Assembly: GCA_965213705.1 (NCBI GenBank)
Contig: OZ243913.1
Coordinates: forward strand, 3,616,001-3,680,000
Length of the DNA stretch: 64,000 bases
Reading direction: 5' to 3'
From: Trueperaceae bacterium
GTDB taxonomy: Bacteria > Deinococcota > Deinococci > Deinococcales > Trueperaceae
Positions 37,392 to 57,913 of this stretch are shown piece after piece. Numbering within the stretch: position 1 is the stretch's first letter; every line of letters begins with the position of its first letter. Under the pieces are notes generated by a model. The model was given only the letters and a program-made list of their open reading frames with translations, had not been told where the DNA came from and did no database searches. A program made the translations under genes and the position numbers.

Positions 37392-37424
37392 TTTTCACAG
37401 ATGGCAAAGGGGGAGGGCAAGCAA

Positions 37425-37703
37425 ATGTACGGTTCCGCTTCGAGCATCACGGCGACCCAGGAGCAAATTTCCACCGAACTAGACGGTGAAGTCGTCATCC
37501 TCAACACGAACACGGGCAAATACTTTACGCTGGACGGCGTCGGCACCGAGGTGTGGCAGCACCTACAAAACGCGGTCACAGTCTCAGACCTGTGCGCCAA
37601 GGTTGAGGCCCGTTACGACGTTGCGCCGGAACGCTGCCGGGCCGACGTGCTGGCGCTGTTGCAAGACCTCACCGAGGCAGGACTCGTCGAGCGTGTCGAC
37701 TAA
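37425..37703 (+). CDS. PqqD-family RiPP recognition element (lasso B1-like)
   Basis: ELDGEVVILN..TGKYF.LD.VG..VW..L....TV..L...V...YDV..ERC..DV..LL.DL...GLV. GGAGG SD. Confidence 0.92.
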   Translation: MYGSASSITATQEQISTELDGEVVILNTNTGKYFTLDGVGTEVWQHLQNAVTVSDLCAKVEARYDVAPERCRADVLALLQDLTEAGLVERVD

Positions 37704-38121
37704 GCTCGCCAAGATACCCGCCTTTTTCGCGAGGTCGGCTCTGGAGCGCCGGCTTTTGCTCGAGGCCCTGGCCACTCTCTGGCTCGTTCGGCTCGGGTTG
37801 TGGCTGCTGCCTTTCGGCGCGCTGCTGCGCCTCGTCCGGCGTCCGCTGGGAACGTCTAGCGTCGAAGTCGGCCGTTTGACAAAAACATTCACGGTTGTGA
37901 GCCGCTACGTGCCGCGTGCCACTTGCCTTGCCCAAGCCCTCGCCGGTCAACGTCTGTTGGCGGCTCACGGGCATTCCAGCCGCTTGCGAATAGGCGTTCG
38001 CAAAGACGGCGCGCGGTTGGGGGCGCACGCGTGGCTCGAGCATCAGGACCGCGTGGTTGTCGGACTCGTGTCCAACCTGACCGACTACCACCCCTTGTCC
38101 GGCGAGGGAGAACGACCATGA
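37693..38121 (+). CDS. Lasso-peptide B2-type transglutaminase-like leader peptidase
   Basis: TCLAQALA...LRIGVRK...AHAWLE with catalytic Cys/His. GTG start overlaps the PqqD stop. Confidence 0.9.
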   Translation: MSTKLAKIPAFFARSALERRLLLEALATLWLVRLGLWLLPFGALLRLVRRPLGTSSVEVGRLTKTFTVVSRYVPRATCLAQALAGQRLLAAHGHSSRLRIGVRKDGARLGAHAWLEHQDRVVVGLVSNLTDYHPLSGEGERP

Positions 38122-38241: not shown

Positions 38242-39402
38242 ATGAAACGAATTTTGTGGGGCAGCCTGTTAATTTTTATTCTTGCTGCTTGTGGCACGAG
38301 CAGCAATCCAGAAGTGCCGCAAGCGACGAACACCTTTAGTTTTACTGTGGACCCGGCAGCGCGAAGCGTCGAACTCGCTGCAGCACCGGCTGGTGCTCTT
38401 GCCGCTCGAGCCGAAGATGGCAGCCGTGTTTTAGTACCGCGTACGGACTTGAGTTTGAAGTCCTACACCTTTACTTTCTTGCCCGGCAACATACTCGCCA
38501 TCAACGCGAGCTTTAGAAACATTTCGGGTAAAACTTTCAAAAACTTGACGTTCAGCCGCGCTGCAAGCTCAGACAATATAGTCAGTTCGAGCGAGCCGGA
38601 CGTGGTCGAAACTTTGGAGTCTGGCGCGTCCACCAGCACTTTGCGCTTTATGGTGCAACACCAAGGTCAGCGCTTTGCTTACGAAGTAGACGCGAGTGCG
38701 ACGGTTGCAGCCCCAGAGCCTGGTGGAACCGAATGTACCAATCCGGTAAACATCCCCGACGACGTTCTTAGGCGGCAAATTCGGTCGGTGATTGGTAAAT
38801 CTCAAGGCGACATCACTTGCGCTGATATGGCGAGCCTGGAATCGTTGAGCATCGAGTCGCTTTACTCTTACGTTGGTGAGGTTTACAACCTGGAGGGATT
38901 GCAGTTTGCGGTGAACCTGACAGAGCTCCGAGTTAGTTTCACTGAACTTACCGACCTCCGCCCTTTAAGTGGTCTCACAAGCTTGCAGGGTTTGGATGTT
39001 GCTTCCAACAAAATTGATGATATCAGTCCACTACAGGGATTGACGAACCTGACGGGCCTGTCTGTGGCTAACAACAACATAAGCGACATCAGCGCAGTGA
39101 GCGACCTGCTCAGGTTGGAGCGCCTCATCTTGGCCTTCAACCCTATCACCGACATCGGCCCCTTGAGCGGTCTGGAAGACTTACAAATACTTCTCATTTG
39201 TAACAACCGGATCAGCGACCTCGGTCCCCTTATTGCCAACCCAGGTATCGGGAACGGCGACGACTTCATCGATTTGTCCGTGAACCCTTTTGACCTTTCT
39301 CCCGGTTCAAAAGCCTCACAAGACATCGAAACCCTAGAGCGTCGCAACCCGAACATTCCCAACATTTTCGGAACCGAAGCTCAGCCGGGCAGATGTAGCT
39401 AA
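38242..39402 (+). CDS. Internalin-like LRR lipoprotein 1
   Basis: Lipobox LAAC, a shared N-terminal beta domain, cap CTNPVNIPD..LR...GDITCADM, and 22-residue LRRs (L..L.L..N.I.D..PL..L). Confidence 0.9.
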   Translation: MKRILWGSLLIFILAACGTSSNPEVPQATNTFSFTVDPAARSVELAAAPAGALAARAEDGSRVLVPRTDLSLKSYTFTFLPGNILAINASFRNISGKTFKNLTFSRAASSDNIVSSSEPDVVETLESGASTSTLRFMVQHQGQRFAYEVDASATVAAPEPGGTECTNPVNIPDDVLRRQIRSVIGKSQGDITCADMASLESLSIESLYSYVGEVYNLEGLQFAVNLTELRVSFTELTDLRPLSGLTSLQGLDVASNKIDDISPLQGLTNLTGLSVANNNISDISAVSDLLRLERLILAFNPITDIGPLSGLEDLQILLICNNRISDLGPLIANPGIGNGDDFIDLSVNPFDLSPGSKASQDIETLERRNPNIPNIFGTEAQPGRCS

Positions 39403-39412
39403 GGAGCTTGAC

Positions 39413-39571
39413 ATGCATAAACCCGAGCCACAACCCAAGCCCACCGGCGGGCAACCCGTCAACGTGAACAAGCAGCCCTACGAGACACCGGTTTTTAAGG
39501 AACACGGCAGCGCCAAAAGTATCACTTTGCAAACCTTCTTCGGCACCTTCTCGCCGCCCGCCTCGGACTAA
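39413..39571 (+). CDS. RiPP precursor peptide 1 (52 aa)
   Basis: AAGGAG SD. MHKPEPQPKPTGGQPVNVNKQPYETPVFKEHGSAKSITL-QTFFGTFSPPASD. Not in the ORF track. Confidence 0.9.
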   Translation: MHKPEPQPKPTGGQPVNVNKQPYETPVFKEHGSAKSITLQTFFGTFSPPASD

Positions 39572-39638
39572 ACGTTACTTTCCAGCACCCCTACGCAGGG
39601 ATACTTAAAACTCATCGAAAACTTCAGGAGAGAGTCTG

Positions 39639-42209
39639 ATGAAACGGATTTTGTGGGGCAGCTTAATAGTTTTACTCTTGGCAGCTTGCGGAACCAGTAA
39701 GCCAGACCTGCCGCAGGCTACAAATACTTTCAACTTCACCGTCAACCCGGCGGCGCAGAGCGTTGAACTCGCTTCGACACCTGCGGCTGGATTGACCGCT
39801 CAAGCCGAGGACGGTAGCCGCGTTCTCAAACCCGCCACAGAACTGAGCTTGGAGTCTTTCACATTTACTTTCTTGCCAGGTAATTTGCTCGCCATCGACG
39901 CGGTTTTCAAAAACGTCTCAGACCAAACGTTTACCAACCTGACGTTCAGTAGGGCGGCGGGCTCAGACGACATCGTCAGCTCGACTGAGCCGAACGTGGT
40001 CGCAACCTTGGCACCTGGCGCGTCCACCGGCACGCTGCGCTTTACGGTACAGCATAGAGGCCAACCTTTTACCTATGCGGTAGAGGCTAGGGCGACCGTG
40101 GGGATGACGGGAGGGGCTGGCTGTACCGACCCGGTGAACATTCCTGACCGTTTTTTGAAAGAAGGTACACGCATCCAGCTTCAACTTCAAGACAGCGAGA
40201 TTACCTGCGCGGACATGGAGAGGTTGACCGAACTCGACATCTATGAGTTAAGGGACGACATTGATGAAGAATTTCCCGAGCTGGTTGATGTCGGTACTCT
40301 TGAAGGGCTTCAGTTCGCGGTAAACCTCGAGTTCCTGGCGCTGCCTATTAACAGTAACAACAAAGACCTGCTCCAACCTTTGACGGGGCTCACAAGTCTC
40401 ACGAAACTTAGAATCGGCTTGTCCGGTGGGCGTCTTGACAACATCGACATTCCAGAGGAGTTTGAGAATTTTTACAATTTCAGCTACCTCGGCAGTTTGA
40501 TCAACTTGACTGACCTGAGACTATTCGCCTACCAAACGGATTACAGTTGGATAAGCAGTTTGACTAAGTTGACGACTCTCGACCTCAGCTTCAACGAACT
40601 CATAGAAGACTTGACTCCGTTCAGTACCCTGACCAACCTGACCGACTTCAACCTGTCTACCAACTCAGTCAGCGAGTTAGGTCCTTTGGTCTCAAATCCC
40701 GGCATCGGCGAAGGTGACGACCGGCTCGACTTAGACCAGAACTGTTTAGTTCTCACACCGGGGTCGGAAGACCTCGAGGCTGTCAATACCCTGGAGAGCC
40801 GCAACCCGGACGTTCAGAACGTTTTCTTAGGCACCCAAAAGAAGGACGCCTTTTGCGGCAGGACGCCCGACAGCGGCGCTGACCTGAGTCTGTTCGTCAA
40901 CGCTTTTAAACGTGGCGACGACGGCTTCGGCACTGTCGACACCGTGCAGGTCGGGGATGTTGTGGAATTCGTCGTAACCATTGATAACAACGGCCCCGAC
41001 ACGGCGTTCGACATCGTTGTCACAGCTGAGGTTGATAATGCCGCCGGACTCGAGTCATTTACATTTGAGGCCGTTGCTGACTCCAACTGCGACACCGTGC
41101 TAGACGGACCCGAAACCTACAAGCTGGTTTGCACTTTGACAGAAGCGTTGCCCGCTGGTGGTGAGGTTGGTCAAGTAGACCCTAGATTCTTCCTCGGTTT
41201 CGCAGCCGAGGCGGACAACGTCGGAACCATGACCGCGCGGTTTGAGGTATCTTCTAATACTACCAACGACTTCGATTCGTCCAACAACGATGATGTTAAA
41301 GAGATTAGTGTTTTGCCGGAGAACTCCGGCGATGAGTGTACCGACCCCGTGAATATTCCCGACGACACCTTGAGGCAATCCATTCGTGATGCGTTGAACA
41401 AGCCCGAAGGCGACATCACTTGCGCAGACATGGCGAGCTTGACCGAGTTGGTTTCACGCATCGAAAACGAGGTTGACCTCGAACAAATCGGCAACCTGGA
41501 AGGCATTCAGTTCGCAAAGAATCTCGAAACACTTGATTTTTTCGTCTCATGCTGCGAAGTAGTTCCCGACTTCTTCGAACCCCTGAGCGGTCTCGCCAAC
41601 CTGACTACCTTGAAAATTTTCAACATTCGGGACTTTCAGGAACTGGACTTTGACGACCTGGACTTCAGTCCTTTAGGTAGTCTCTCCAACCTTACCGTCC
41701 TCAGCCTTCCAGAAACCCAAGTAAGTAATATCGACTTTTTAAGTGGTTTGACCAACCTGTCCACCCTCGACCTTTCCGACAACGTCATAGACGACTACAG
41801 TCCCTTGAGCAACCTGACCGCCCTGAAAAAGCTGGACCTTTCGTCGGACAGGTTGTACTTAGAGTTTTTCGGAGTTGAGGACATCGGCTTTCTGAGTGGT
41901 CTTACCGCTTTGACCGACCTCGACCTCTCGAGTAACAACGTCAGTGACCTCAGTCCGTTGAGCGGCCTCACCCAGTTGGTCAATCTCGACCTTTCTTCCA
42001 ACCTCGTCACTGACATCAGCCCTTTGGTCATCAATGAGGGAATTGGCGACGGTGATGATGAACTTGTCTTAGTGAGCAACTGCTTGGATACGAGTTCGGG
42101 TTCTCAAGCGCTTGGTGACGCTGACACCCTAGAAAGCCGTAACCCAGATGTTCAGAATGTCTTCCTGGGAATGCAAGGAGATGATGAGGCTTGCAGCCAG
42201 GAAAACTAG
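39639..42209 (+). CDS. Internalin-like LRR lipoprotein 2 (two LRR blocks plus DUF11-like domain)
   Basis: Lipobox LAAC and two capped LRR blocks separated by ADLSL...VTIDNNGPD...SNN (DUF11-like). Confidence 0.9.
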   Translation: MKRILWGSLIVLLLAACGTSKPDLPQATNTFNFTVNPAAQSVELASTPAAGLTAQAEDGSRVLKPATELSLESFTFTFLPGNLLAIDAVFKNVSDQTFTNLTFSRAAGSDDIVSSTEPNVVATLAPGASTGTLRFTVQHRGQPFTYAVEARATVGMTGGAGCTDPVNIPDRFLKEGTRIQLQLQDSEITCADMERLTELDIYELRDDIDEEFPELVDVGTLEGLQFAVNLEFLALPINSNNKDLLQPLTGLTSLTKLRIGLSGGRLDNIDIPEEFENFYNFSYLGSLINLTDLRLFAYQTDYSWISSLTKLTTLDLSFNELIEDLTPFSTLTNLTDFNLSTNSVSELGPLVSNPGIGEGDDRLDLDQNCLVLTPGSEDLEAVNTLESRNPDVQNVFLGTQKKDAFCGRTPDSGADLSLFVNAFKRGDDGFGTVDTVQVGDVVEFVVTIDNNGPDTAFDIVVTAEVDNAAGLESFTFEAVADSNCDTVLDGPETYKLVCTLTEALPAGGEVGQVDPRFFLGFAAEADNVGTMTARFEVSSNTTNDFDSSNNDDVKEISVLPENSGDECTDPVNIPDDTLRQSIRDALNKPEGDITCADMASLTELVSRIENEVDLEQIGNLEGIQFAKNLETLDFFVSCCEVVPDFFEPLSGLANLTTLKIFNIRDFQELDFDDLDFSPLGSLSNLTVLSLPETQVSNIDFLSGLTNLSTLDLSDNVIDDYSPLSNLTALKKLDLSSDRLYLEFFGVEDIGFLSGLTALTDLDLSSNNVSDLSPLSGLTQLVNLDLSSNLVTDISPLVINEGIGDGDDELVLVSNCLDTSSGSQALGDADTLESRNPDVQNVFLGMQGDDEACSQEN

Positions 42210-42284
42210 CTGACACAAGCGTTTCTTGACGCGAGGTTTAGTCAGACAGTAGAACATCAGTCGTAAGTAGTGTAAGGAGTAAGT

Positions 42285-42446
42285 GTGAGCAAATACCTAA
42301 AGTCCCAACCCTTGTTACAAAACGTTGCTGAAAACGAAAAAGGCAAGAAAGTTTACCAAACCCCCATTCTCAAAGAACACGGTAGCGCCAAGGACATCAC
42401 CCTGCAAACCTTCTTCGGCACCTTCTCGCCGCCCGCTTCCGACTAA
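42285..42446 (+). CDS. RiPP precursor peptide 2 (53 aa)
   Basis: AAGGAG SD and GTG start. MSKYLKSQPLLQNVAENEKGKKVYQTPILKEHGSAKDITL-QTFFGTFSPPASD. Not in the ORF track. Confidence 0.9.
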   Translation: MSKYLKSQPLLQNVAENEKGKKVYQTPILKEHGSAKDITLQTFFGTFSPPASD

Positions 42447-42454
42447 TCTCCTCG

Positions 42455-42484
42455 GTCCGGTGGCCCCACGCGGGGCTACCGGAC
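42455..42484 (+). promoter_or_regulatory. Conserved hairpin after precursor 2
   Basis: GTCCGGTGGCCCC-ACGC-GGGGCTACCGGAC, with no U tail. Confidence 0.65.
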
Positions 42485-42552
42485 TCATCAGCGTCGTTAC
42501 CACTCGAGCGCCCTGTTGCTTTACAGTAAGCACAAGACATGAAGGAGGAACT

Positions 42553-44640
42553 GTGAAACGACGATTATGGGGAAGCTTTTTGGTGTTGCTTCTGGCCGCT
42601 TGCAGCTCGAGCCCGGTAGACCTGCCGCAGGCCGGCAATACTTTCAGCTTTGCGGTTGACCCGGCGGCGCAAAGTGTCGACCTCGTCTCGACGCCTGCTG
42701 CGCTGAGTAACCAAGCCGAAGACGGTAGCCGCGTCCTCGTACCGGGTGAAGACTTGAGCCTGGAATCTTACACATTCGTATTTTTACCCGGCAACGTGCT
42801 CACCATCGACGCGGTTTTCAAAAACGTTTCAGACCAAACTTTTACCAACCTGAGGTTCAGCCGCGGGGCGGGCTCGAGCAACGTTGTCAACTCGACCGAG
42901 CCGGACGTGGTCGCAACCCTGGCACCCGGCGCGTCCACCGGTACGCTGCGTTTTGAAGTGCAGCACAGGGGCCAAAGTTTCAGCTACGAGGTCGAAGCTA
43001 CCGCGACCGTGGAGACGGGCGGGGCCGACTGCGCCGACCCGGTAACGATTCCGGACGAGGTTCTGAGGCAAGCCGTCCGGGACGCTCTGAACAAACCCGA
43101 AGGTGACATCACCTGCGCCGACATGGCGAGTTTGTCCGAATTGAGCGTGATAGGTCGCCAGGGCGAGAACGGAATTCCTAACAGGTTCGTCGAAAACTTA
43201 GAGGGTTTGCAGTACGCCGTGAACCTGATGACGCTGCAGCTTATGGGCAACCTTACCCTCAACGACGTCACTCTGCTGAGCACGCTTACCGAACTGACCG
43301 ACCTGGACCTGAGCGGCAACCGCATCGGTGATATCGGTCCGTTGAGCACGCTGGTCAACCTCACGAGGCTCGACCTCGGTTTCAACCTGGATATCGAGGA
43401 CGTCAGCCCGCTGAGCGGACTGACCGGGCTCGAGACCTTGGTCCTCAACATCAACCAGATTACCGACCTGGCCCCGCTGAGCACGCTTACAAACTTGCGC
43501 AGGCTCGACCTCGGCACCAACTTTGTTGCCGACCTTGGTCCTTTAGCAACCAACACAGGCGTCGGAAACGACGACGACCGCATCGACCTGAGGTTCAACT
43601 GTTTGGACGTCTCACCGGGTTCGCAAACGCTCGAGAACGTCGCCGCACTGGAAAGCCGCAACCCGGATGTCCAGAACGTTTTCTTGGGAACGCAAAGAGA
43701 GAGTGACGAGGACTGCGGTCGGCTGCCGCCACCGCCTCCCGCCGAAGAGTGTAGCGACCCGGTGAACATTCCCGACGACACTCTGCGAAAAGAACTGCGT
43801 TTGCAACTTCAACTCCTTGAAGACAGCGAAATCACCTGCTCGGACCTGCTACGTCTAACCGAGTTCAGCTATCAAGATATAGACGTCTTCATCACTAATT
43901 TGGAGGGGTTGCAGTACGCCGTCAACCTGATATCGCTCGAGATTGTCGACGGTTTTCTTACAGACATCAGTCAAGTGAGCGGCCTCACCAAGTTAACAAG
44001 ACTGGATTTGAGCCGCAACGAACAAATTAGGGACACCACACCGCTGAGTGGTTTGGTGAACCTCAGATACCTTGACTTAGCGAGCAATGCCATTGAAGAC
44101 GTCAGTTCACTAAACGGTTTGACCAACCTCGAAATCCTCTACCTGTCCAATAACCCTATCAAGCACATAAGGCCACTTAGCGGTCTGACTAATCTCAGGG
44201 AACTTTACCTAAACGGCGTTGCTGCGCTCGAGGACTACAGCGCTCTACAAGCCCTACCCAACTTGCAAGTTCTCAACCTGTCAAACCGGTTTCTTTTTGA
44301 AGATTTGAAAATAGTCGACATCAGCTCTTTGAAAGGGCTTACCAGCCTGACCCAACTGAATTTGTCCGACAATAAAATCTCCGATATCGGTTCGCTAAGC
44401 AACCTGACAAACTTGAGTAGGCTTGATTTATCGGAAAACTTCGTACGTGACCTTAGCCCCCTTGTGGCAAATACAGGTCTTGGGAACGGCGAAGACAGCA
44501 TCGAGTTGGGGAACAACTGTCTGGACACTTCCCCCAAATCACAGGCTTCACAAGATGTTGCAATTATCGAAGCGAGAAACCCATCAGTTGACAATGTTTT
44601 CGGCTTCGATGTTCCGAAGCTACCGTCACAGTGCAATTAA
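42553..44640 (+). CDS. Internalin-like LRR lipoprotein 3 (two LRR blocks)
   Basis: GTG start after AAGGAGG. MKRRLWGSFLVLLLAAC lipobox and two capped LRR blocks joined by PPPPP. Confidence 0.9.
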   Translation: MKRRLWGSFLVLLLAACSSSPVDLPQAGNTFSFAVDPAAQSVDLVSTPAALSNQAEDGSRVLVPGEDLSLESYTFVFLPGNVLTIDAVFKNVSDQTFTNLRFSRGAGSSNVVNSTEPDVVATLAPGASTGTLRFEVQHRGQSFSYEVEATATVETGGADCADPVTIPDEVLRQAVRDALNKPEGDITCADMASLSELSVIGRQGENGIPNRFVENLEGLQYAVNLMTLQLMGNLTLNDVTLLSTLTELTDLDLSGNRIGDIGPLSTLVNLTRLDLGFNLDIEDVSPLSGLTGLETLVLNINQITDLAPLSTLTNLRRLDLGTNFVADLGPLATNTGVGNDDDRIDLRFNCLDVSPGSQTLENVAALESRNPDVQNVFLGTQRESDEDCGRLPPPPPAEECSDPVNIPDDTLRKELRLQLQLLEDSEITCSDLLRLTEFSYQDIDVFITNLEGLQYAVNLISLEIVDGFLTDISQVSGLTKLTRLDLSRNEQIRDTTPLSGLVNLRYLDLASNAIEDVSSLNGLTNLEILYLSNNPIKHIRPLSGLTNLRELYLNGVAALEDYSALQALPNLQVLNLSNRFLFEDLKIVDISSLKGLTSLTQLNLSDNKISDIGSLSNLTNLSRLDLSENFVRDLSPLVANTGLGNGEDSIELGNNCLDTSPKSQASQDVAIIEARNPSVDNVFGFDVPKLPSQCN

Positions 44641-44650
44641 GGAGATGCGT

Positions 44651-44809
44651 ATGAAAAAACCTGATTTGTTTTTCAAGTCCGCCGACGAACAACTTACCGA
44701 AGTGGATAAGCAACCTTATGTGACGCCGGTTCTCAAAGAACACGGCCACGCCAAAGACGTCACCCTGCAAACCTTTTTCGGTACTTTTTCGCCGCCTGCT
44801 TCGGACTGA
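44651..44809 (+). CDS. RiPP precursor peptide 3 (52 aa)
   Basis: AAGGAG SD overlapping the upstream stop. MKKPDLFFKSADEQLTEVDKQPYVTPVLKEHGHAKDVTL-QTFFGTFSPPASD. Confidence 0.9.
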   Translation: MKKPDLFFKSADEQLTEVDKQPYVTPVLKEHGHAKDVTLQTFFGTFSPPASD

Positions 44810-44817
44810 CCGCCCTG

Positions 44818-44847
44818 TTCCGGTGGCCCCACGCGGGGCCACCGGAA
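44818..44847 (+). promoter_or_regulatory. Conserved hairpin after precursor 3
   Basis: TTCCGGTGGCCCC-ACGC-GGGGCCACCGGAA perfect 13-bp stem, with no U tail. Confidence 0.65.
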
Positions 44848-44929: not shown

Positions 44930-46444
44930 GTGAAGCGACTTTTTTGGGGTGGATGGCTCGTTCTTTTGCTGGCGGCTTGTGGTGGGCGCGGCCCCGAGGC
45001 GAAGGTGACGGGCGTGTTTGTTTTGAGCGTGGACCCAGGTACACAGACCGGCGAAGTTTCGGTGGTGGGGACGGGTGCGGCCGAGCGGGACGGCGCTCGC
45101 GCGCTCGTTCCCGGCGAGGACTTAGCAGTCGCGGGCTCAGAGTTCGTTTTTCTGCCCGACAACGTCGTCAGCTTGGAGCTGGCTTTCAAAAATGTCTCGT
45201 CTTGCACCTTTAGGAACTTGGCGTTCAGCCGAGGCGCGGACTCCCGAGCCGTGGTGAGTTCGGTCGAGCCCGCCGTTACGAGTGCCGATTTAGGCGGGGG
45301 CGCGCTCGAGCCCGCCGAAACCACGCGCACGTTAACTTTCGGCGTCACTCACACGGGCAAGCCGTTTGTCTACGCCCTCGCGGCCGAGGCCGACGTGACG
45401 TGCGCCCAAGCGGCGAGCGCCGACCTGCAGACCAACCTGGACGCCCGCTCCGGGAGTACCGTCGCCAAGGGCAAGCCTTTTACCTACTACGCCAACGTCA
45501 GGAACAACGGACCCGACGAGGCTGCGGGCGTCGCGCTCACGGTGACGGTGCCGTTTCCGGTCAGCGTGCCGGACGGCTGCAGCCAGAGCGGGAGCACGCT
45601 GACCTGTGACCTGGGCAAAGTCGGGGCGGACGGGAGCAAGGGCGTGCTCGTCACCGGGACGGCCGCCGAAGCGGGTTCGTACAAGGTGTCCGCCACAGTT
45701 TCCGCAGGCACGCCCGACCCGGACTCGCGCAACAACAGCGTGACAAAAACTTTCGAAGTCTCCGTGCCCACCCAAACCTGCACCGGTCCTGTGCAGATTC
45801 CCGACGCGGCCTTGGAGGCCGCCGTCCGCGCCAAGCTGAAGATTCCGAGCGCCGGCTTGACTTGTACGGACATGGCGAAGTTGACAACCCTCAGGGCCGA
45901 CGCCGACGTTGAGAGCGAAGATGACCCGGACCTTATCAGCAACCTGCAAGGGTTGCAGTTCGCAACCAACCTGACCACCCTAAGCTTAAACGACAACAGC
46001 GTCAGCGACTTGGGTCCGCTGAAGGGCCTTACGAAATTGACGGAGCTTAACTTGATTACCAACCGCATCAGCGACCTGGGTCCGTTGAGCGGCCTGACCG
46101 GCCTGAAACGCCTCACTCTCAACTTCAACGAGGTTACAAACCTGACGCCGCTCAAAGGGCTGACGTCTTTGACAGACCTGCAACTCGCCGTCAACCGAAT
46201 AAGCGACGTGACGGCGTTGAGCGGTTTGACAAACCTCAACATTCTGGACCTTTACTTCAACACCGTCACGAACATCAACCCCCTGGTCGCCAACAGCGGT
46301 GTCGGGAACGCGGACGACTTCGTCGACCTGAGCAACAACTGTCTGGACGCGGCCGGTGTCAACGCCGCACGCAGCCTCGAGGCCAGAAGCCCAAACAACG
46401 TCGTGAAGTTCGGCAGACAGGGGGGCGAGCAGTGCACGCCGTGA
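44930..46444 (+). CDS. LRR lipoprotein 4 with DUF11-like domain
   Basis: GTG start after GGAGG. Lipobox LAAC, the shared N-domain, ADLQ...VRNNGPD...DPDSRNN, then a capped LRR block. Confidence 0.88.
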   Translation: MKRLFWGGWLVLLLAACGGRGPEAKVTGVFVLSVDPGTQTGEVSVVGTGAAERDGARALVPGEDLAVAGSEFVFLPDNVVSLELAFKNVSSCTFRNLAFSRGADSRAVVSSVEPAVTSADLGGGALEPAETTRTLTFGVTHTGKPFVYALAAEADVTCAQAASADLQTNLDARSGSTVAKGKPFTYYANVRNNGPDEAAGVALTVTVPFPVSVPDGCSQSGSTLTCDLGKVGADGSKGVLVTGTAAEAGSYKVSATVSAGTPDPDSRNNSVTKTFEVSVPTQTCTGPVQIPDAALEAAVRAKLKIPSAGLTCTDMAKLTTLRADADVESEDDPDLISNLQGLQFATNLTTLSLNDNSVSDLGPLKGLTKLTELNLITNRISDLGPLSGLTGLKRLTLNFNEVTNLTPLKGLTSLTDLQLAVNRISDVTALSGLTNLNILDLYFNTVTNINPLVANSGVGNADDFVDLSNNCLDAAGVNAARSLEARSPNNVVKFGRQGGEQCTP

Positions 46445-46571: not shown

Positions 46572-47594
46572 ATGAAAAAACTGAGTTGTTTAGTTCTCGT
46601 CGTTTTGTTGCTCAGCGCCTGCAGCGCACCCAACTCGCAGCCTACCGAACCGCCGCCGACTGAGCCTGTCGACCAGCCGCAGCCCGTCGCCGACCTGCAA
46701 GTCAACTTCGACGAGCGCTCGGCAGACCCCGTCGCCCAAAACGGTACTTTCGAATACTACGTCAGTGTCAGGAACAACGGCAGCGCCGACGCAGAAGGCG
46801 TGCAGCTTACGGTCACAGTGCCCTTTCCGGTCACCGAAGTCCCGCCAGAATGCGGCTCGAGCGACAGCACGTTAGAGTGTGACCTTGGCAACCTCGACGT
46901 GGGCTTTACCGAAGGGGTTCTCGTTTCAGGCCAAGCCGTTGAAGAAGGAATTTTTCTGGTATCAGCAAATGTTTCTGCCGCCACGAATGACCCTGACCTG
47001 AGTAATAACAGCACCACTGAAAGTTTCGAGGTTTTTCTGCCGACATCGCCTTCGGACTTGCAAGGCCGAATTGCGAATTGGTCTGTAGGTGAAGCTGAGC
47101 TGAGCACGGTGCTTTACGATCAAGCGGAAAAGTCTACTAAAGTCGCTTCGGGGACTGTAGGCGCGGACGGAAAGCTCGACATCTTTTTGGGCAAAAGTGT
47201 ACCGGCCGATGTCCTGTCAAGAATTTCCGCCTGTTCGGGGTTGATGCAGACGAACCCGGGCACGCGCCAAAACACCTTCTCGGCTCTTCAGGTCATGCGG
47301 GGTCAGACAGAGGTAGGCCGGGTGGCCCTCGCCTCGAGCCAAGCGGTTCTAACTGAAGGTCTGCGTAAGGTAGGCGACTACTACGTCCAGCAAACCTACG
47401 CGGACGCCGCCAACACGGTGACGGGGAGCTGCGCGCTCGGCGGGGTGGTCGACGCGGTTTTCAAGTATGACCTCAAACTCAACCAGGGTTGGAACACCGT
47501 CACCTTTAAACTCACCAGAAAAGACGGTGACGCCCAAACCCTCGAGCTGTCGTCGGGTACCCCACAAGGGGCCGCCTGGTTTTTCGCGCCCTAA
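46572..47594 (+). CDS. Lipoprotein with DUF11-like domain (no LRR)
   Basis: Lipobox LSAC and ADLQV...VRNNGS...DPDLSNN, similar to the module in 44930..46444. C-terminal YDLKLNQGWN. Confidence 0.85.
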   Translation: MKKLSCLVLVVLLLSACSAPNSQPTEPPPTEPVDQPQPVADLQVNFDERSADPVAQNGTFEYYVSVRNNGSADAEGVQLTVTVPFPVTEVPPECGSSDSTLECDLGNLDVGFTEGVLVSGQAVEEGIFLVSANVSAATNDPDLSNNSTTESFEVFLPTSPSDLQGRIANWSVGEAELSTVLYDQAEKSTKVASGTVGADGKLDIFLGKSVPADVLSRISACSGLMQTNPGTRQNTFSALQVMRGQTEVGRVALASSQAVLTEGLRKVGDYYVQQTYADAANTVTGSCALGGVVDAVFKYDLKLNQGWNTVTFKLTRKDGDAQTLELSSGTPQGAAWFFAP

Positions 47595-47611: not shown

Positions 47612-48622
47612 ATGCCCGCCGCCCCCAAGACTGCCGCCCCCAAAACTGCCGGCTTGGTCATGGTGGGACACGTTGCCGTGGGGCTCGAGGGTGACGCTAC
47701 CCACCTCGGCGCCTTGTTGGAGGCGTTGGGGCGGCTGTTCGTGCTGGGTTCGGAGCCTACCGCAAAAGGCGTCACTATTCGGCTGAGCGAGTCGGGGTGG
47801 GCGCTCGGGCCGGGTAAAGAGGTCTACAAAGCCGCTGGCTTGCAGGTTGTCGAGACGGCGTCGGGCTTTTATTTGCGCTGCGGCGCGTCGGTGTTCGAAG
47901 TGTCTCCCGGCGTGACGGGGCGGTTGTACCTCGGGCCGGACTTTTGGGAGCACACCTCGTACGAGCGGCGCGAGTTCTTTTTGCTCGGGCTACTCATGCT
48001 GCTGCGCCCGCTGGGGCTGTACGGTTTGCACGCCTGCGGGCTACGCAAACCTGACGTGTGCGGTGACGCGGGCGGTGACGTGGGCGCGCTGTTGGTGGGC
48101 GGCAGCGGCGCGGGCAAAACGACCACCACCTTGAACCTCATCCGGCACGGTTGGGACTACCTGTCCGACGACGCGGTGTTGCTGCGTGAAGCGGGCGAAA
48201 GAGTGGAAGCCGTAGCCTTTCGCAAAGGGTTTTCTTGCACGCCGAAGACACTTCTCGCTTTTCCCGGTTTGCGCGGCGTGGAAGAGTTCGGTGACCCTTC
48301 GGGCAAGCGGGTCGTGGACTTAGGGGCAACGTTTGGGGGCGGTTTCGTACCGCGTTGCACGCCGCGGTTGCTGCTGTTTCCCCGGCTACACGCGGGACGC
48401 ACGGAGCTTCGGCCGCTACCGAACGCGCTGGCCCTCGTCCGGCTCAGCCAGCAGAGTGGCGGCATCATGACGGCCGCTAGGGGGGACAACGTGGTGTCGC
48501 GCGGCCAGCTCGAGCTGCTCAAACGCCTCGTGCGTCAGGCGCAGAGTTTCGAACTTTTACTGGGCGAGGACGCGCTGCACGATTTGTCTTTGGTGAGTAA
48601 GTTATTGGAGGATTCATTCTAG
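47612..48622 (+). CDS. HPr-kinase-related (RiPP-associated) kinase
   Basis: LHACGL, Walker A GGSGAGKTT, YLSDD. Confidence 0.85.
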   Translation: MPAAPKTAAPKTAGLVMVGHVAVGLEGDATHLGALLEALGRLFVLGSEPTAKGVTIRLSESGWALGPGKEVYKAAGLQVVETASGFYLRCGASVFEVSPGVTGRLYLGPDFWEHTSYERREFFLLGLLMLLRPLGLYGLHACGLRKPDVCGDAGGDVGALLVGGSGAGKTTTTLNLIRHGWDYLSDDAVLLREAGERVEAVAFRKGFSCTPKTLLAFPGLRGVEEFGDPSGKRVVDLGATFGGGFVPRCTPRLLLFPRLHAGRTELRPLPNALALVRLSQQSGGIMTAARGDNVVSRGQLELLKRLVRQAQSFELLLGEDALHDLSLVSKLLEDSF

Positions 48623-49641
48623 TGCGCGTCGTCGTCGAACTCACCAACCGCTGCAACTTGGCGTGCCAGCACTGTTTTTCGGGACGGCACGGCGGCAACG
48701 ACGACCTACCCCTGGCGGTCCTAAACAACATCTTGGCGGGCGCGGCCTCGGTGGGCCTCACCCACCTCACCTTTACCGGCGGCGACCCGACGCTGTACAA
48801 ACACTTCGACACCTTACTGGACCGCGTGACGCAGGAAGGTTACCGCTACAGTTTGGTTACGAACGGCTTTAACTTCGCGCAGGTTTATCCGAAGGTTTTG
48901 AAGTACCGGGGCGGTCTCGAGCAAGTCACCTTCAGCTTAGACGGCGCGACCGACGCCACGCACGCCCGGTTGCGCGGGAGTAAGTCATTTGCTCGAGTCC
49001 TGGCGGCGATGGCGCTGTGCCGCGAGCACGAGGTTCCTTTTACCAACAACATGGTCGTCACCAAGCACAACGCGCACGAACTCGCCGCGGCCGCCGAGCT
49101 TGTGCTGGCGCAAGGCAGCGCGGGCCTGCGCTTTGGGCACCTAATGCACTCGCCACTGACGACGGCCCAGGACTTCGACCTGAGCTTAGACGAGCGCCGC
49201 GGGGTCGAGCGCGAAATCTGGGCGCTGCAAAAACGCTACGCCGCGCGGCTGCCCGTTGCGATGGCTCCCGGCTTCACCACCGCCGACCCGCTGCCCTGCG
49301 CGCCGCTGCACCTGCAAGAGGTCAACGTGGACTACCGCGGCTACCTGACCAAGTGCTGCCATCTTTCGAGCCACGGCGCGGGCGTGGGCACGGACGACGT
49401 GGTGTGCAACCTCGCCGAGACCGACTTTCGTGAGGGCTTTCTCAAGCTGTTTTTGCAAAACGAAGGATTCAAACGCGCTAAGGCCGCGCGGCTTCAGGCC
49501 AGCCCGAGCGAGAGCGATACAAGTCCCTGCTGGTACTGCGCCAACCACTTCAAAAAGGTCGACTGGCTGCGGAACTTTGAGGGGCATCCGTGGCTCGAGC
49601 ACCTGTGGGACGCCGCACCCGCCGAGGACGTGCTCGCGTGA
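48622..49641 (+). CDS. Radical SAM enzyme with Cys-rich C-terminal (SPASM/twitch-like) region
   Basis: ELTNRCNLACQHC, TGGDP, SLDG...H...RG. C-terminal C...G.LTKCC...CNL...CWYC. Confidence 0.92.
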   Translation: MRVVVELTNRCNLACQHCFSGRHGGNDDLPLAVLNNILAGAASVGLTHLTFTGGDPTLYKHFDTLLDRVTQEGYRYSLVTNGFNFAQVYPKVLKYRGGLEQVTFSLDGATDATHARLRGSKSFARVLAAMALCREHEVPFTNNMVVTKHNAHELAAAAELVLAQGSAGLRFGHLMHSPLTTAQDFDLSLDERRGVEREIWALQKRYAARLPVAMAPGFTTADPLPCAPLHLQEVNVDYRGYLTKCCHLSSHGAGVGTDDVVCNLAETDFREGFLKLFLQNEGFKRAKAARLQASPSESDTSPCWYCANHFKKVDWLRNFEGHPWLEHLWDAAPAEDVLA

Positions 49642-50792
49642 CCGTTCCCTCCTCCGCACCAGCAGGATTTCGGCTGCTCGTCGCCTGCTCGAGGGCGCAC
49701 CTGGAACCCGGTAACGCGGCGACGCTCGACGAACTTCTCGGGCTACCCCTGGACTGGGACGAAGTGCTCGCCGAAGCGCGCCGGCACGGCGTCACGCCGC
49801 TGTTGCACCGCCACCTGTCGGGCCGGGCTGAGGTCCCCGCCGCCCCGCTCGCCGAACTCAGCACCTACGCCCGCCGCAACGCCGTTCACAACCTCCTGCT
49901 GTCAAAAGAACTGCTCCGGGTGCTGGGGGAACTTGAGGGTGCGGGTGTGCGCGCCGTGCCCTACAAAGGCCCGACGCTCGCCGTCGCCGCCTACGGCGAC
50001 GTGGCGCTGCGCTCGTTTCAGGACCTCGACGTCATCGTGCGCCCGAACGAGTTCGAACCCGCTCTGGACGCGCTGCAAACGTCTAGCTACGCCCTCGTCG
50101 AGAGTGCCGAGGGCCGGTTTCACGCGACGCTCAAACACGAGGAAACGGGCGTGCTGGTCGAACTCCACCGCGACGTGGTGCGGCGTGAGCGTTTTCCGAC
50201 CGGGCTCGAGCTTACCGCTATGTGGGAAAGGCTCACGGAGGTCGGTCTGCTTGGTCAAAGAGTGCCGAGCTTCGCACCCGAAGACACGCTTTTGCTCCTG
50301 TGCCTCCACGGAGCCAAACACGAGTGGCAAGGGCTCACCTGGCTGTGCGACCTCGCCGAATACCTGCGCGCTCACCCAAGCCTGGACTGGGACCGAGTGC
50401 TGCAGCAAGCCGAGCGGGCACGCGTGACGCGGGTGCTGCTCCTCGGGCTGGCGCTGGCGGAGCATGTTTTGGCCCCGCCGCTGCCCGAAACGGTGCAGTG
50501 TTTGGTAAAGAGTGACCGCAGTTTGCCCGGTTTGCAGGCGACTATCATCGTGAGGTTCTACGAAGACGCAAACCTGCTCGAGCGGGGCGCCCTACCCTAC
50601 CGCCTGCGCGCCGGGATGCGCTCGAGGTTGGAGGACAAGCTGCCCGTTTACAGAAGTTTTGCAGCCCGGCTGCTGCGCCCGAACGAGCAGGACAAACGGG
50701 CCGTCAAGTTGCCGAAACGGCTCGAGCCTTTGTACTACCTCGTCCGGCCGCTGCGCCTGCTAAAGGACGGCGTGGCTCAAAAACGACGCTGA
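49638..50792 (+). CDS. Nucleotidyltransferase family protein (NTP_transf_5-like)
   Basis: YKGP.LA...YG....R...DLDVIV, VELH, LCLHGAKH.W..L.WLCDL. GTGA overlap with the rSAM gene. Confidence 0.88.
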   Translation: MTVPSSAPAGFRLLVACSRAHLEPGNAATLDELLGLPLDWDEVLAEARRHGVTPLLHRHLSGRAEVPAAPLAELSTYARRNAVHNLLLSKELLRVLGELEGAGVRAVPYKGPTLAVAAYGDVALRSFQDLDVIVRPNEFEPALDALQTSSYALVESAEGRFHATLKHEETGVLVELHRDVVRRERFPTGLELTAMWERLTEVGLLGQRVPSFAPEDTLLLLCLHGAKHEWQGLTWLCDLAEYLRAHPSLDWDRVLQQAERARVTRVLLLGLALAEHVLAPPLPETVQCLVKSDRSLPGLQATIIVRFYEDANLLERGALPYRLRAGMRSRLEDKLPVYRSFAARLLRPNEQDKRAVKLPKRLEPLYYLVRPLRLLKDGVAQKRR

Positions 50793-54846: not shown

Positions 54847-55611
54847 TCAGTCGTCGCTGGCGTCCTCCAGCAGCGTCCGGTCGCCCAGCGGTTGCAGCGG
54901 GCGGTTGCTGGTGCCGATAACCGAGAAAAGCGCGTCTATTTGCTCAGCAGACAGTTCCACGGGTTCGGCCATCACGTTCCACTTCACGCCTTGCGAGCAG
55001 GGCGGCGTGGTGAGCGAACCCGGGTAGCGGTAGGTCGCGCCGCTCTCGGGCAGCATGGCGCTCGGGTCGACGGTCTCTTGGGTTTCGGTTTCGCCCTCTT
55101 CGGCGGGAGCGTTCGCCAGGACACCGGCTAAGGCTTCGTTCTCCGCGCCTTCTCGGAGCATCACCCCGACGACGGCCAGGTCGCCCTCGGTGCCCACCTT
55201 CCTGTGGACAAAGTGGAGTTCGGCACCGAGCAGGTCGCCGTTGAGCGCGTGCTCGCTCGGCGTGTGAAAGTGAAACTGCAACAGTTCGTACGCCTCACCG
55301 TCGAGCGTCATGTCGACCTCGCTGCTCGAGTCGTAGGGCACCTGGATGGTGTGGCCGTTGTTCATCACCACCAGCGGCGACGGTTGGTAGTTGAACGAGA
55401 TGTCCCGCAAGTCTTCTTGGGTCAAGCTGGCTTCGGCCAAGTCGATGGGCGACTGTTCGGTGCCGACGGCGCAGAGCTGGTACGCTTCGTCGAGGTCGCC
55501 CCAGTTTTCGGGTCCGGCTTCACCGCTGTACTCCCAGTGGGGCGGCTCGAGCGCTTGCCCGTAAACGCTTCCTACGAGTAAAAGAGCTGTGAGGGTTAAG
55601 AGTTTGGTCAT
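54847..55611 (-). CDS. Alpha-class carbonic anhydrase, secreted
   Basis: Signal peptide, HWEYSG, QSPID, QFHFHTPSEH, ELHFVH, GSLTTPPC. Confidence 0.95.
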   Translation of the reverse strand: MTKLLTLTALLLVGSVYGQALEPPHWEYSGEAGPENWGDLDEAYQLCAVGTEQSPIDLAEASLTQEDLRDISFNYQPSPLVVMNNGHTIQVPYDSSSEVDMTLDGEAYELLQFHFHTPSEHALNGDLLGAELHFVHRKVGTEGDLAVVGVMLREGAENEALAGVLANAPAEEGETETQETVDPSAMLPESGATYRYPGSLTTPPCSQGVKWNVMAEPVELSAEQIDALFSVIGTSNRPLQPLGDRTLLEDASDD

Positions 55612-56047: not shown

Positions 56048-57913
56048 TCAGTAGCGGACGCCGTAAGCCTTGACGGTGCCGTCCAGCGCCGCCACGATAA
56101 CCGTGTCGTTCAAAACGAGCGGGCTCGCCTGAATCGGTCCCAGGGTGACGCTGTCTTCGAACAGGCGTTGCCCGGTCAGCGCGTCGAACACGAGCAGCTG
56201 CCCGCCTTCGGTCACGACGTAGAGCCGCCCCGCCGCAACCACGGGCGTCGCGGTGACGGGTGCGTCTAAGCCCTGCTCCCACACGTCGTCGCCGGTCGGC
56301 AGCGACAAGCAGCGCACCGTGTTCGCCCACGACACCGCGTACACGTAGCTGTGCCAGCACACCGGCGAGGCCCACAGCTGGCCCTCGAGGCCGTAGCTCC
56401 AGCGCACCTCCAACTTGTCCAAGTCGAAAGCGTGCAGCTCGCCGGAACGTTCCGGCAACAGCAGCAGTCCGTCTTTGGCGGCGGGTGCGGCGGCGACCGA
56501 GCCGAGCTTGACCTTGAACTTGCCCTCGCCCGTTTTTGCGTCGACACCGTGGACCCAGCCTTCCTGGGTAACGCCGTAAACCGTACCCCGGTAAAGGACC
56601 GGCGGCGTGAGGAGCGGGCTGGCGGCCTCAGAGCGCCACAACAAACCGTTGTCGAGGCCCCTGGCCTGCAAGTTGCCGTCTCTCGAGCTGATAACCAGGT
56701 CGCGCCCGAAGGGCGTCACCCCGACCGCGCCGACCGCCTCCCGCCACAGGGTCCGGCCGCCGGGCCAACTCAGCAGCGACAGGGCGCCGTCGCGACTCAC
56801 TACAGCCAAGTGCCCGTGATGGTAGAGCGGCGCGGTGTTGACTTCGTCGTCGGTTCGAAACTCGGCCTCGGTCGTGCCGTCGGCGGGCCGCAACGCGCGC
56901 ACCGTCTCGTTGCGCAAACCCAAAAACACGAACCCCTCGGCCGCCGTGAGCGCGCCCGGCCACTGCGGGCCTTCGCCGAGCGCCAGCTGCCAGCGGCACA
57001 CCAAGCGTTTGGGGTTGACGGGGCCGTAAGGATACGTGCCTTGCTGGGCGGGACCCCCCAAACGCTGCTGCGTCGCAGCCTGCAAGGTCGTCGCCAAAAT
57101 CGTGCGCAGCGCCGCGGCGACGCTGCGCCCCGAGGCGGGCCGCTCATGGGGATGTTTGGACAACAGCAAACTGATGAGGTCGGACAAGGCGGCGGGAACA
57201 AATGGGTTGTGGTCGAGGGCCGGGGTGATGTCGCCGTAGACGTGCTGGTACAGCACGGCCTGGTCGTTGTCGGCGTCGAACGGGGTGACGCCGGTGACGG
57301 CCTTGTAAAGCACCGCGCCGAAGGCGTACAGGTCGGTGTGCGCGCCGACCGCCCCGCTCAGGGCCTGCTCGGGAGCCATGTAGTGCGGCGTGCCCAGCGT
57401 GAGGCCGGTGCGAGTGAGCTGCCGCGTCGTCTCGGCAAGTTGGACGAGGCCGAAGTCCATCACTTTAGGCTGCAACTGCGCGGTGAGAAGGATGTTGCGC
57501 GGCGTCACGTCGCGGTGGACGACGCCGAGACGGTGGACGTAGTGAAGCGTTTCGGCCACCGTGATGGCCGCTTCTAACAGGTCGCGCAACGGTTCCGGGT
57601 CGGGCTCGAGCGGCCCCAACGACGTAAACGGCCCGCCCTCGACGAGTTCCATGACGAAGTACACGCTTTCACCCTCGCCCCGCCCGAGGTCGTAAATCGT
57701 CACGATGCCCGGATGGTTGAGCCGCGCCAACGTCTTGATTTCCCGCAAAAACCTCTCCCGGTCGGTCTCGGTCAGGTGAGGCCGCAAAAACTTCAGCGCG
57801 ACGTCGCGCTCTAAGTGCTGGTCGCGCGCCCGGTAGACGTAGCTCATCCCGCCCTGCCCGAGTTCGCCGGTTACTAAGTAGCGGTCGTCCAGGAGGTTGC
57901 CGAGGTCTATCAT
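56048..57913 (-). CDS. Hanks-type Ser/Thr kinase with C-terminal PQQ-like beta-propeller (Deinococcus RqkA-like architecture)
   Basis: LGQGGM, VALK, HRD, DFG, APE, then repeated A.D..TG...W blades. Confidence 0.9.
   Translation of the reverse strand: MIDLGNLLDDRYLVTGELGQGGMSYVYRARDQHLERDVALKFLRPHLTETDRERFLREIKTLARLNHPGIVTIYDLGRGEGESVYFVMELVEGGPFTSLGPLEPDPEPLRDLLEAAITVAETLHYVHRLGVVHRDVTPRNILLTAQLQPKVMDFGLVQLAETTRQLTRTGLTLGTPHYMAPEQALSGAVGAHTDLYAFGAVLYKAVTGVTPFDADNDQAVLYQHVYGDITPALDHNPFVPAALSDLISLLLSKHPHERPASGRSVAAALRTILATTLQAATQQRLGGPAQQGTYPYGPVNPKRLVCRWQLALGEGPQWPGALTAAEGFVFLGLRNETVRALRPADGTTEAEFRTDDEVNTAPLYHHGHLAVVSRDGALSLLSWPGGRTLWREAVGAVGVTPFGRDLVISSRDGNLQARGLDNGLLWRSEAASPLLTPPVLYRGTVYGVTQEGWVHGVDAKTGEGKFKVKLGSVAAAPAAKDGLLLLPERSGELHAFDLDKLEVRWSYGLEGQLWASPVCWHSYVYAVSWANTVRCLSLPTGDDVWEQGLDAPVTATPVVAAGRLYVVTEGGQLLVFDALTGQRLFEDSVTLGPIQASPLVLNDTVIVAALDGTVKAYGVRY

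Follow-up and report, generated by a model that had tools for sequence, protein, structure and literature searches.

Precursor genes of a kinase and radical SAM peptide cassette accompany exported domain-X proteins in many bacterial groups

RiPPs, peptides that are made by the ribosome and modified after translation, have mostly been studied as free antibiotics, signals, or cofactors. The systems closest to the one described here tailor their peptides by phosphorylation. Lasso kinases with a His-Lys-Asp-Asp set (poly)phosphorylate serine (PMC9266682), and PadeK, PsmK, and LppK likewise act on serine, which in LppA of the LPP system (lppAKBSDN) is the internal residue S3 (PMC9266682, PMC13381572). 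PsmN-type enzymes cap the peptide phosphate with a hexose by a route that is still unresolved (PMC6993621). RRE-Finder, furthermore, returned about 300 lasso-type RiPP recognition elements (RREs) adjoining radical S-adenosylmethionine (SAM) enzymes, which are treated there as false positives. The locus discussed here combines such a kinase, RRE, and nucleotidyltransferase with a radical SAM enzyme around three short precursor genes, A1 to A3, each of which follows the gene of an exported protein with a domain that we call domain X. It lies in a stretch of 64,000 nucleotides from a Trueperaceae bacterium (contig OZ243913.1, positions 3,616,001 to 3,680,000), hereafter the window, in whose numbering all coordinates are given.

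The three precursor genes are real and under purifying selection. They lie on the + strand at 39413–39571 (A1, 52 aa), 42285–42446 (A2, 53 aa, GTG start), and 44651–44809 (A3, 52 aa), with an AGGAG-type ribosome site upstream of each open reading frame (ORF). Their leaders all follow the pattern Y-xx-P-x-[L/F]-xxx-G-x5-T-L, and their C-termini read TL-QTFFGTFSPPASD, with a core that is identical in all three. A lasso-type leader joined to an identical core is what an earlier, sequence-only reading of the window had proposed, and the ORFs, the leader match, and a six-frame scan, in which the complete 4.25 Mb genome proved to hold exactly three precursor copies, bear this out. By the NCBIfam model lasso_leader_L3, copies 1, 2, and 3 score 15.3, 20.2, and 18.3 bits, so that one of the three passes the cut-off of 19. 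The same reading called the N-termini unrelated, which goes a little too far: copies 1 and 3 both contain MxKP and VxKQPY. It had also pointed to six synonymous codon differences between the cores of copies 1 and 3 and to purifying selection, and rightly so: 6 of the 13 core codons differ, with six synonymous changes and no replacement (proportions of synonymous and nonsynonymous differences, pS and pN, of 0.62 and 0; Fisher p 6.4e-5). A congeneric genome (G001) contributes two further copies with the same core, and over all five copies 9 of the 13 core codons vary with no change of residue. The cores of copies 1 and 2 differ by 2 nt only (p 0.06), whereas their leaders are nearly saturated (pS 0.96); a recent gene conversion between these two copies is thus possible.

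The peptide is found well beyond the window. Close homologues of its radical SAM enzyme number at least 267, and the nearest labelled ones come from Trueperaceae. The family-wide comparison started from 436 genome loci and 431 metagenome loci around radical SAM homologues; the best 80 of each set were taken, 137 of these were retained by identity and coverage, and the window brought the total to 138. A precursor was detected in 88 of them, and most misses are short contigs; the leader pattern overlooked two of 95 precursors, one being window copy 1, whose core equals that of copies 2 and 3. Three of the 78 unique cores defied anchoring; the 75 anchored ones share the motif FFGxF[S/T]P, with Phe at the first, second, and fifth positions in 71, 69, and 74 of them, Gly at the third in 69, Ser or Thr at the sixth in 64, and Pro at the seventh in 68. 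Zero to seven extra N-terminal core residues precede the motif, and 31 cores have no tail behind it. Because FFGxF[S/T]P is all that is conserved family-wide, we take it, and not the 13-mer, as the predicted functional unit; the PASD tail is specific to a lineage. Ser or Thr occupies motif position 4 or 6 in 74 of the 75 cores, and where position 6 has neither, position 4 has one of them in 10 of 11 cores (Fisher p 0.007, calculated on kindred and hence not independent cores). In one locus (L039, G091), two units of domain-X protein, precursor, and kinase stand in tandem, the first with the divergent cores FFNVFTP and FFNVFYP. A description of the motif or cassette was not found in the literature, the supplements of mining papers, which may list such clusters, being outside the search; the available portions of PMC7470986, PMC12710340, and PMC10885120 give no account of either. 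We are nearly certain that the peptide represents a real RiPP family.

The main feature of the system is one that the sequence-only reading overlooked, sound as it was on the precursors, the leader handling, and the phosphorylation: the precursors are tied to exported proteins that carry domain X. In the window, A1, A2, and A3 each lie directly behind the gene of a predicted surface lipoprotein with domain X and leucine-rich repeats (LRRs), and the pairing of precursor and domain X recurs in many bacterial groups. Among 61 related genomes, from which the domain X profile was partly built, the enzyme is present in four, and domain X in the same four and in one 67%-complete genome. A blind sample of 250 genomes (phylum of G085) has the enzyme and domain X each in a single genome, G748 (Fisher p 0.004), where four domain-X genes lie just upstream of a full cassette. 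In a second blind sample of 200 genomes (phylum of G082), domain X occurs in two of five enzyme-positive genomes, with 7 and 13 copies, and in one of 195 enzyme-negative ones (Fisher p 0.0015). Altogether, at least 38 of 50 cassette genomes encode domain X (33, plus five via its lipoprotein form).

The precursors stay with domain X even where the enzymes are distant. Nine orphan precursors have enough upstream sequence to be judged; seven of these lie directly behind a domain-X gene, one behind a broken one, and one, a weak copy, without. In G070, each of the three precursors is an orphan that follows a domain-X gene, away from the enzymes. Precursor genes that follow a protein domain and not their own enzymes point to a peptide that is part of exported proteins. 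In anammox bacteria the two are fused: a basic linker and then FFGRF[R/Y]P end the domain-X protein, as [KR][GS]FFGRF[R/Y]P, in five of 1695 ORFs of at least 150 aa and in two more of another set (two further pattern matches were precursor frames and were set aside), and 10 proteins in a set of 52 end in much the same way. For comparison, FF[GSRC]RF is absent from the 5698 long frames of the window genome. A crude signal-peptide heuristic, of use as a lead only, flags 30 of 68 upstream genes versus 34 of 165 in the background. A functional tie between the peptide and domain X is, in our judgment, very probable.

Domain X itself measures about 115 aa and is the one domain common to the exported proteins beside the cassette, whose cargo domains are otherwise unrelated (LRR, beta-helix, SBBP propeller, peptidase, and lectin-like Pfam families). 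It is mostly C-terminal, ending within 12 residues of the terminus in 45 of 71 cases, and the N-terminal domain X of the four window lipoproteins, to which it is confined in the window genome, corresponds to the form that other phyla carry at the C-terminus (hhalign 89%, E 2.2e-6). Neither Pfam, NCBIfam, nor PDB sequences match it at E <1e-3, and Foldseek has no match at E <=1e-3; the nearest Atlas clusters are hypothetical proteins. The model is a confident immunoglobulin (Ig)-like beta-sandwich with generic fold matches (best Z 7.7, none at 8 or above). Gamma-adaptin ear (GAE) domains are among these (3mnm, Z 6.7, rmsd 2.8, 90 aligned; 2ymt, Z 6.5), at Z values that below 8 count as generic, and CBM2 and transglutaminase barrels score alike. 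Only Asn92 and hydrophobic positions are kept, and no Ser, Thr, Tyr, or Lys is invariant.

Several observations concern domain-X proteins elsewhere. A divergent domain-X lipoprotein is encoded in a 67%-complete genome (L189, G005) that has no enzyme or precursor match. Two genomes, G865 and G924 (L274–L287), have 13 and 7 domain-X proteins, mostly very large (open frames of about 450–1900 aa) and away from a divergent cassette; several of those in G924 end in short basic tails (-RR). Caldilineaceae domain-X proteins (L025, L248, L249, L255; P0317–P0320) carry an xYLPLVxR-like C-terminal tail, which we take to be a surface-sorting signal of Chloroflexota. Often, a small exported protein (cluster c5; L047:1708-2229 and 24 other ORFs), not found in the window genome, lies between the domain-X genes and the cassette. 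It is weakly similar to FecR_C, STN, and secretin-N0 in 6, 5, and 2 of 20 members, and 15 of 25 have a C-terminal FxFx[FIL]DP motif; the lipoprotein form of domain X begins with a similar strand, Fx[FLV]x[VI][DN]P (12 of 12). The Asp of such a c5-like DP strand could mimic a phosphoserine in F-S-P.

Besides the precursor and the radical SAM enzyme, the cassette consists of an HprK-like kinase, an RRE, a B2 peptidase, and a PF14907 nucleotidyltransferase (NTase). Over 37 long loci, near-duplicates kept, the counts are 36 for the kinase, 34 for the RRE, 30 for the precursor, 28 for domain X, 27 for B2, 26 for the NTase, and 7 for a GNAT acetyltransferase. In the window, where the whole locus is on the + strand, it opens with the discrete PqqD-family RRE, or B1 (37401–37703; PF05402, E 5.5e-22; lasso PqqD models just below their cut-offs), and the transglutaminase-like B2-type leader peptidase (37693–38121; NF033537, 81.7 bits against a cut-off of 33; PF13471; Cys/His motifs TCL and AHAWLE), whose start was placed at a GTG overlapping the B1 stop. 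It closes with the kinase (47612–48622; PF07475, E 1e-6, under the cut-off; His140, P-loop Lys169, Asp186-Asp187), the radical SAM enzyme (48622–49641), and the PsmN/LppN-type NTase (49638–50792; PF14907, E 6e-61; DxD motif). Catalytic motifs are intact throughout: the B2 Cys in 51 of 51 and its His in 50 of 51 family members, the kinase Asp-Asp pair in 83 of 84, and the NTase DxD in 54 of 54, while the His-Lys-Asp-Asp set of the kinase matches that described for lasso kinases. The optional GNAT enzyme (L028, L050, L063, and others) could acylate the freed N-terminus. Six loci (L104, L106, L109, L113, L116, L119) have two small genes of 92 and 113 aa inserted between the kinase and radical SAM genes, which look like a nucleotidyltransferase/DUF86-type pair.

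Not one of the 138 loci contains an asparagine-synthetase-like cyclase, in a search whose leave-one-out controls recovered 12 of 12. PF00733 does occur elsewhere in 42 of 50 genomes, never within the locus ranges (contig numbers read as record order), and the window genome has only a partial cyclase match (E 8.5e-5) about 1 Mb away. Core positions 7–9 are F, S, and P, the core has no Cys, and over the family Asp or Glu is found at these positions in only 5 of 78 unique cores. A lasso identity was consequently rejected, for want of both a cyclase and a ring acceptor, and the sequence-only reading had correctly seen that the core offers no Asp/Glu at positions 7–9 and no Cys and that no canonical lasso ring can form. 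Its lasso-type leader handling by B1 and B2 is supported by the leader, RRE, and B2 matches and by the intact B2 motifs, and its phosphorylation of Ser/Thr is likely in view of motif positions 4 and 6. The N-terminal pyroglutamate it considered possible was rejected as a step that defines the family, only 29 of the 78 cores having Gln in first place. No transporter or exporter family recurs among the ORF clusters scanned around the cassette, and neither a signal-peptidase-like protease nor an MsbA-like exporter was seen among these recurring clusters or the window cluster genes.

Between its two enzyme blocks, the window holds the cargo array, so that the full order is RRE/B1, B2, lipoprotein 1, A1, lipoprotein 2, A2, lipoprotein 3, A3, lipoprotein 4, DUF11 lipoprotein, kinase, radical SAM enzyme, and NTase. 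LRR lipoprotein 1 (38242–39402) has an LAAC lipobox and domain X at about 38320–38712, followed by LRRs. Lipoprotein 2 (39639–42209; domain X at 39714–40106) and lipoprotein 3 (42553–44640; domain X at 42628–43017) each have two LRR blocks, the former also DUF11, and lipoprotein 4 (44930–46444; domain X at 45002–45403) has DUF11 and LRRs. From lipoprotein stop to precursor start, the distance is 10 nt for A1, 75 nt for A2, and 10 nt for A3; the predicted cores span 39530–39568, 42405–42443, and 44768–44806. These lipoprotein genes are tandem paralogues with 60–80% DNA identity, and their LRRs resemble internalin repeats only far under family cut-offs. The DUF11 lipoprotein (46572–47594) carries a "c14" domain (E 4e-56 to the c14 profile) that precedes the kinase in other Trueperaceae cassettes as well. 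Near-identical RNA hairpins follow A2 (42454–42485, z -3.8, without a U tail) and A3 (44818–44847, z -5.6), with none of this kind behind A1, and likely stabilize the mRNA; promoter and terminator scans gave signals at or under shuffle level. The G+C content is lower in lipoproteins 1–3 and the precursors (0.48–0.57; 38242–44809) than in the kinase, radical SAM, and NTase genes (0.64–0.66; 47612–50792), consistent with a faster turnover of the cargo array, and G001 has two precursor units where the window genome has three. Downstream on the - strand, translations inspected by eye suggest a secreted carbonic-anhydrase-like ORF (54847–55611) and a fusion of a Ser/Thr kinase with a propeller domain (56048–57913), both unrelated to the precursor system.

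In the twitch-like radical SAM enzyme, besides the CxxxCxHC motif, five C-terminal cysteines (226, 245, 246, 303, and 306) are kept in 228–229 of 229 sequences, and Cys246 still in 103 of 116 aligned sequences with distant representatives included. One four-ligand auxiliary cluster among five cysteines would leave one to spare. EpeE reportedly has a "Cys-Cys" arrangement. One auxiliary cluster with a spare Cys is the arrangement of epimerases (PMC13012085, PMC8326336, PMC5682303), and the spare Cys223 of EpeE is its hydrogen donor (PMC13012085). Together with the tolerance of the first two motif Phe for nonaromatic residues (Leu, Met, Ile, Arg, Ala, or Pro at times; positions 1–2 nonaromatic in 6–7 of 75 cores) and an x position that can be Gly (11 cores), the spare invariant Cys favors epimerization over a cyclophane. 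A D-residue, most likely at a Phe, would hence be the leading candidate product, with odds that we put just short of even. It is a lead guess and not a result because the model of the enzyme (pLDDT 91.6) is closest in fold to SuiB (Z 25.6, rmsd 3.1, 288 aligned) and SkfB (24.7); EpeE, at Z of about 19, ranks below both and below anSME, which counts against an epimerase. By sequence the enzyme is no member of the YydG family, which is not among its best 25 NCBIfam matches, and no radical SAM model among these 25 (of 69 families) reaches its cut-off (best 85.7 versus 400). A YydG profile matches residues 3–152 only (E 5e-11), and no YydG occurs in 401 sampled genomes.

The sequence-only reading had left Phe-centered chemistry between a cyclophane and epimerization, and of these inferred outcomes the latter fits better. 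A cross-link formed by the same system between a Phe ring and a residue close by, as a cyclophane or biaryl, would suit the three conserved Phe, the SuiB-like fold, SuiB being a cross-linker, and a weak match of the C-terminus to the PqqE profile. The replacement of Phe at positions 1–2, and once by Ile at position 5, speaks against it. So does the third residue of each Phe-x-x, which is Gly, variable, or Pro (F-S-P is conserved, FFG carries Gly, and FGx varies, judged by triceptide acceptor rules). Only one auxiliary cluster with a spare Cys is predicted, and the five conserved C-terminal Cys do not make the two-cluster SPASM pattern. This preference of the earlier reading, which touches only the chemistry and overlaps with the other explanations, therefore seems rather doubtful to us; some third type of reaction may be involved instead, for which the chances are slightly better though still low. 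The wider radical SAM clade (P0121–P0268; 397 representatives at E <=1e-30) shares C-x18-CC...CxxC and includes some double-length proteins.

Given the pairing with exported domain-X genes in so many groups, the enzymes likely make a partner or tag rather than a free antibiotic. We lean, by a little, toward the matured peptide as a modified direct partner of domain X on exported proteins. Each such protein would be co-expressed with one precursor, and a single enzyme set would act on all, in trans if need be. B1 would bind the YxxPxL leader, whereupon the kinase would (poly)phosphorylate the motif Ser/Thr, here most likely core Ser8 or Thr6. The radical SAM enzyme would take a C-alpha hydrogen and its spare Cys return one from the opposite face, yielding a D-residue, most probably of Phe. 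The PF14907 enzyme might then cap or transfer the phosphate in PsmN-like manner, and B2 would cut after Thr-Leu. Made in step with each exported protein, the product would associate with domain X as ligand, assembly factor, or anchor. More tentatively, and with the chances rather against it, a phosphate-capped, D-amino-acid heptapeptide may be an interchangeable handle, bound or ligated to the Ig-like domain of a whole exported-protein repertoire for anchoring, assembly, or export, of which anammox bacteria would have an unmodified cationic version in cis.

A number of observations weigh against the peptide as a partner of domain X. Twelve of the 50 cassette genomes have no domain X match, many of them fragmented, and the same is true of three of the five blind enzyme-positive genomes of the 200-genome sample. 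Domain X lies within 4 kb upstream of only 24 of 42 precursors, and a precursor is missing after many domain-X genes (lipoprotein 4 of the window; L253–L256). The enzymes are cytoplasmic and domain X is exported, with no recurrent transporter in the cassette. The fold of domain X also resembles CBM2 sugar-binding modules. Finally, when a natural fusion of domain X and FFGRFRP was modeled by AlphaFold, the domain was well predicted (pLDDT 94–98) and the tail unstructured (55–62), which gives no hint of docking in cis; a donor-strand arrangement of the fused tail, a candidate we had considered, was not seen in this model.

Some of these points would suit a free modified peptide, a signal or antimicrobial, with the domain-X proteins serving as receptors, as immunity factors, or as cargo under common regulation, or with domain X binding a glycan, perhaps the peptide's own sugar cap. 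Such enzymes are usual in RiPP pathways, the strong hairpins after A2 and A3 fit the overproduction of a small product, and the CBM2-like fold, the undocked tail, and the minority of cassettes lacking domain X all agree with it. Against a free product stand the precursors that keep to domain-X genes at a distance from the enzymes and the fusion of the motif to anammox domain-X proteins. The core, moreover, is nearly invariant across phyla, unlike that of diversifying antimicrobials, and no exporter recurs, which makes us regard a free peptide as unlikely.

Covalent ligation is a further option: the kinase would build a polyphosphate on the peptide Ser/Thr, which the NTase would use like a nucleoside triphosphate to ligate the peptide onto domain-X proteins or an envelope polymer. 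Lasso-type kinases do polyphosphorylate (PMC9266682, PMC13381572), the nucleotidyltransferase FzmU joins a phosphonate resembling a triphosphate to a peptide (PMC13622209), and LppN is inactive without an unknown partner (PMC13381572); one precursor per exported gene at the window locus would be in keeping with such a use. On the other hand, domain X offers no invariant acceptor Ser, Thr, Tyr, or Lys, PsmN adds hexoses in Escherichia coli (PMC6993621), an NTase could be detected in no more than 26 of the 37 long loci, and the motif Ser/Thr is missing from the anammox fusion tails, so that we hold ligation to be quite improbable. A lasso cluster in decay, in which duplication of the tandem lipoprotein genes passively carried the precursor along and copies 1 and 2 were homogenized, is scarcely credible when pN is 0 against a pS of up to 0.83, the catalytic motifs are all intact, and the same motif and cyclase-free cassette occur in many phyla.

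A peptide partner of domain X would be of interest beyond this locus. The system occurs in organisms with poorly understood envelopes, in records labelled Brocadia, Kuenenia, Nitrospira, Entotheonella, Acidobacteriota, Chloroflexota, and Trueperaceae. It would also supply a short substrate for the uncharacterized radical SAM clade. To PF14907 enzymes, on which PMC13381572 and PMC6993621 leave the chemistry open, it would give a candidate setting with a partner.

Among known systems, LPP (PMC13381572) is similar in its YxxPxL-type leader, discrete RRE, HprK-like kinase, and uncharacterized NTP transferase and in having no macrolactam cyclase; an internal Ser is phosphorylated there (S3 in LppA), as is predicted here. 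It differs by a signal-peptidase-like protease, an MsbA-like exporter, and variable cores, whereas the window system has B2 and no exporter; the radical SAM enzyme, the invariant FFGxF[S/T]P, and the domain-X partners are found only in the latter, and "radical" or "rSAM" appears zero times in the LPP main text (PMC13381572). Paeninodin and pseudomycoidin (PadeK, PsmK/PsmN) share the split B1/B2, the His-Lys-Asp-Asp kinase, and a PF14907-type NTase with DxD; the window system lacks their cyclase, ring acceptor, C-terminal Ser rule, and ABC exporter and has a radical SAM enzyme. Epipeptides (EpeE/YydG) and proteusin epimerases resemble it in hydrophobic core residues and in a radical SAM enzyme whose conserved cysteines, by prediction, form one auxiliary cluster and leave one Cys to spare, yet their precursor is another one, and the kinase, NTase, and B2 belong to the window system. 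Triceptides and radical SAM cyclophanes likewise place an aromatic-rich, Cys-free core beside a radical SAM enzyme; their enzymes carry a two-cluster SPASM domain where the window enzyme is twitch-like, and the window family seems to have no conserved aromatic-x-x with a fixed C-beta acceptor. With PQQ and QhpC, a radical SAM enzyme and an RRE mature peptides of ribosomal origin that finish up as partners to exported proteins. A single class of redox enzymes is served there, whereas domain X is joined to unrelated cargo domains. GAE domains, eukaryotic and cytosolic, bind DFGGF or FGxLV motifs (PMC13581114), which resemble FFGxF, with an Ig-like sandwich, a likeness that we offer as a fold analogy without claiming homology. 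In short, the system belongs to neither the lasso peptides, the LPPs, nor the YydG family, and by analogy it would work as a combination of the LPP and paeninodin tailoring kits with a twitch radical SAM enzyme. Taken singly, the enzymes are of known types; what is new is the logic at the gene level, that is, a peptide together with a domain-X repertoire and their fusions. We regard the peptides as a new family, whose genomic tie to an exported-protein repertoire is without precedent.

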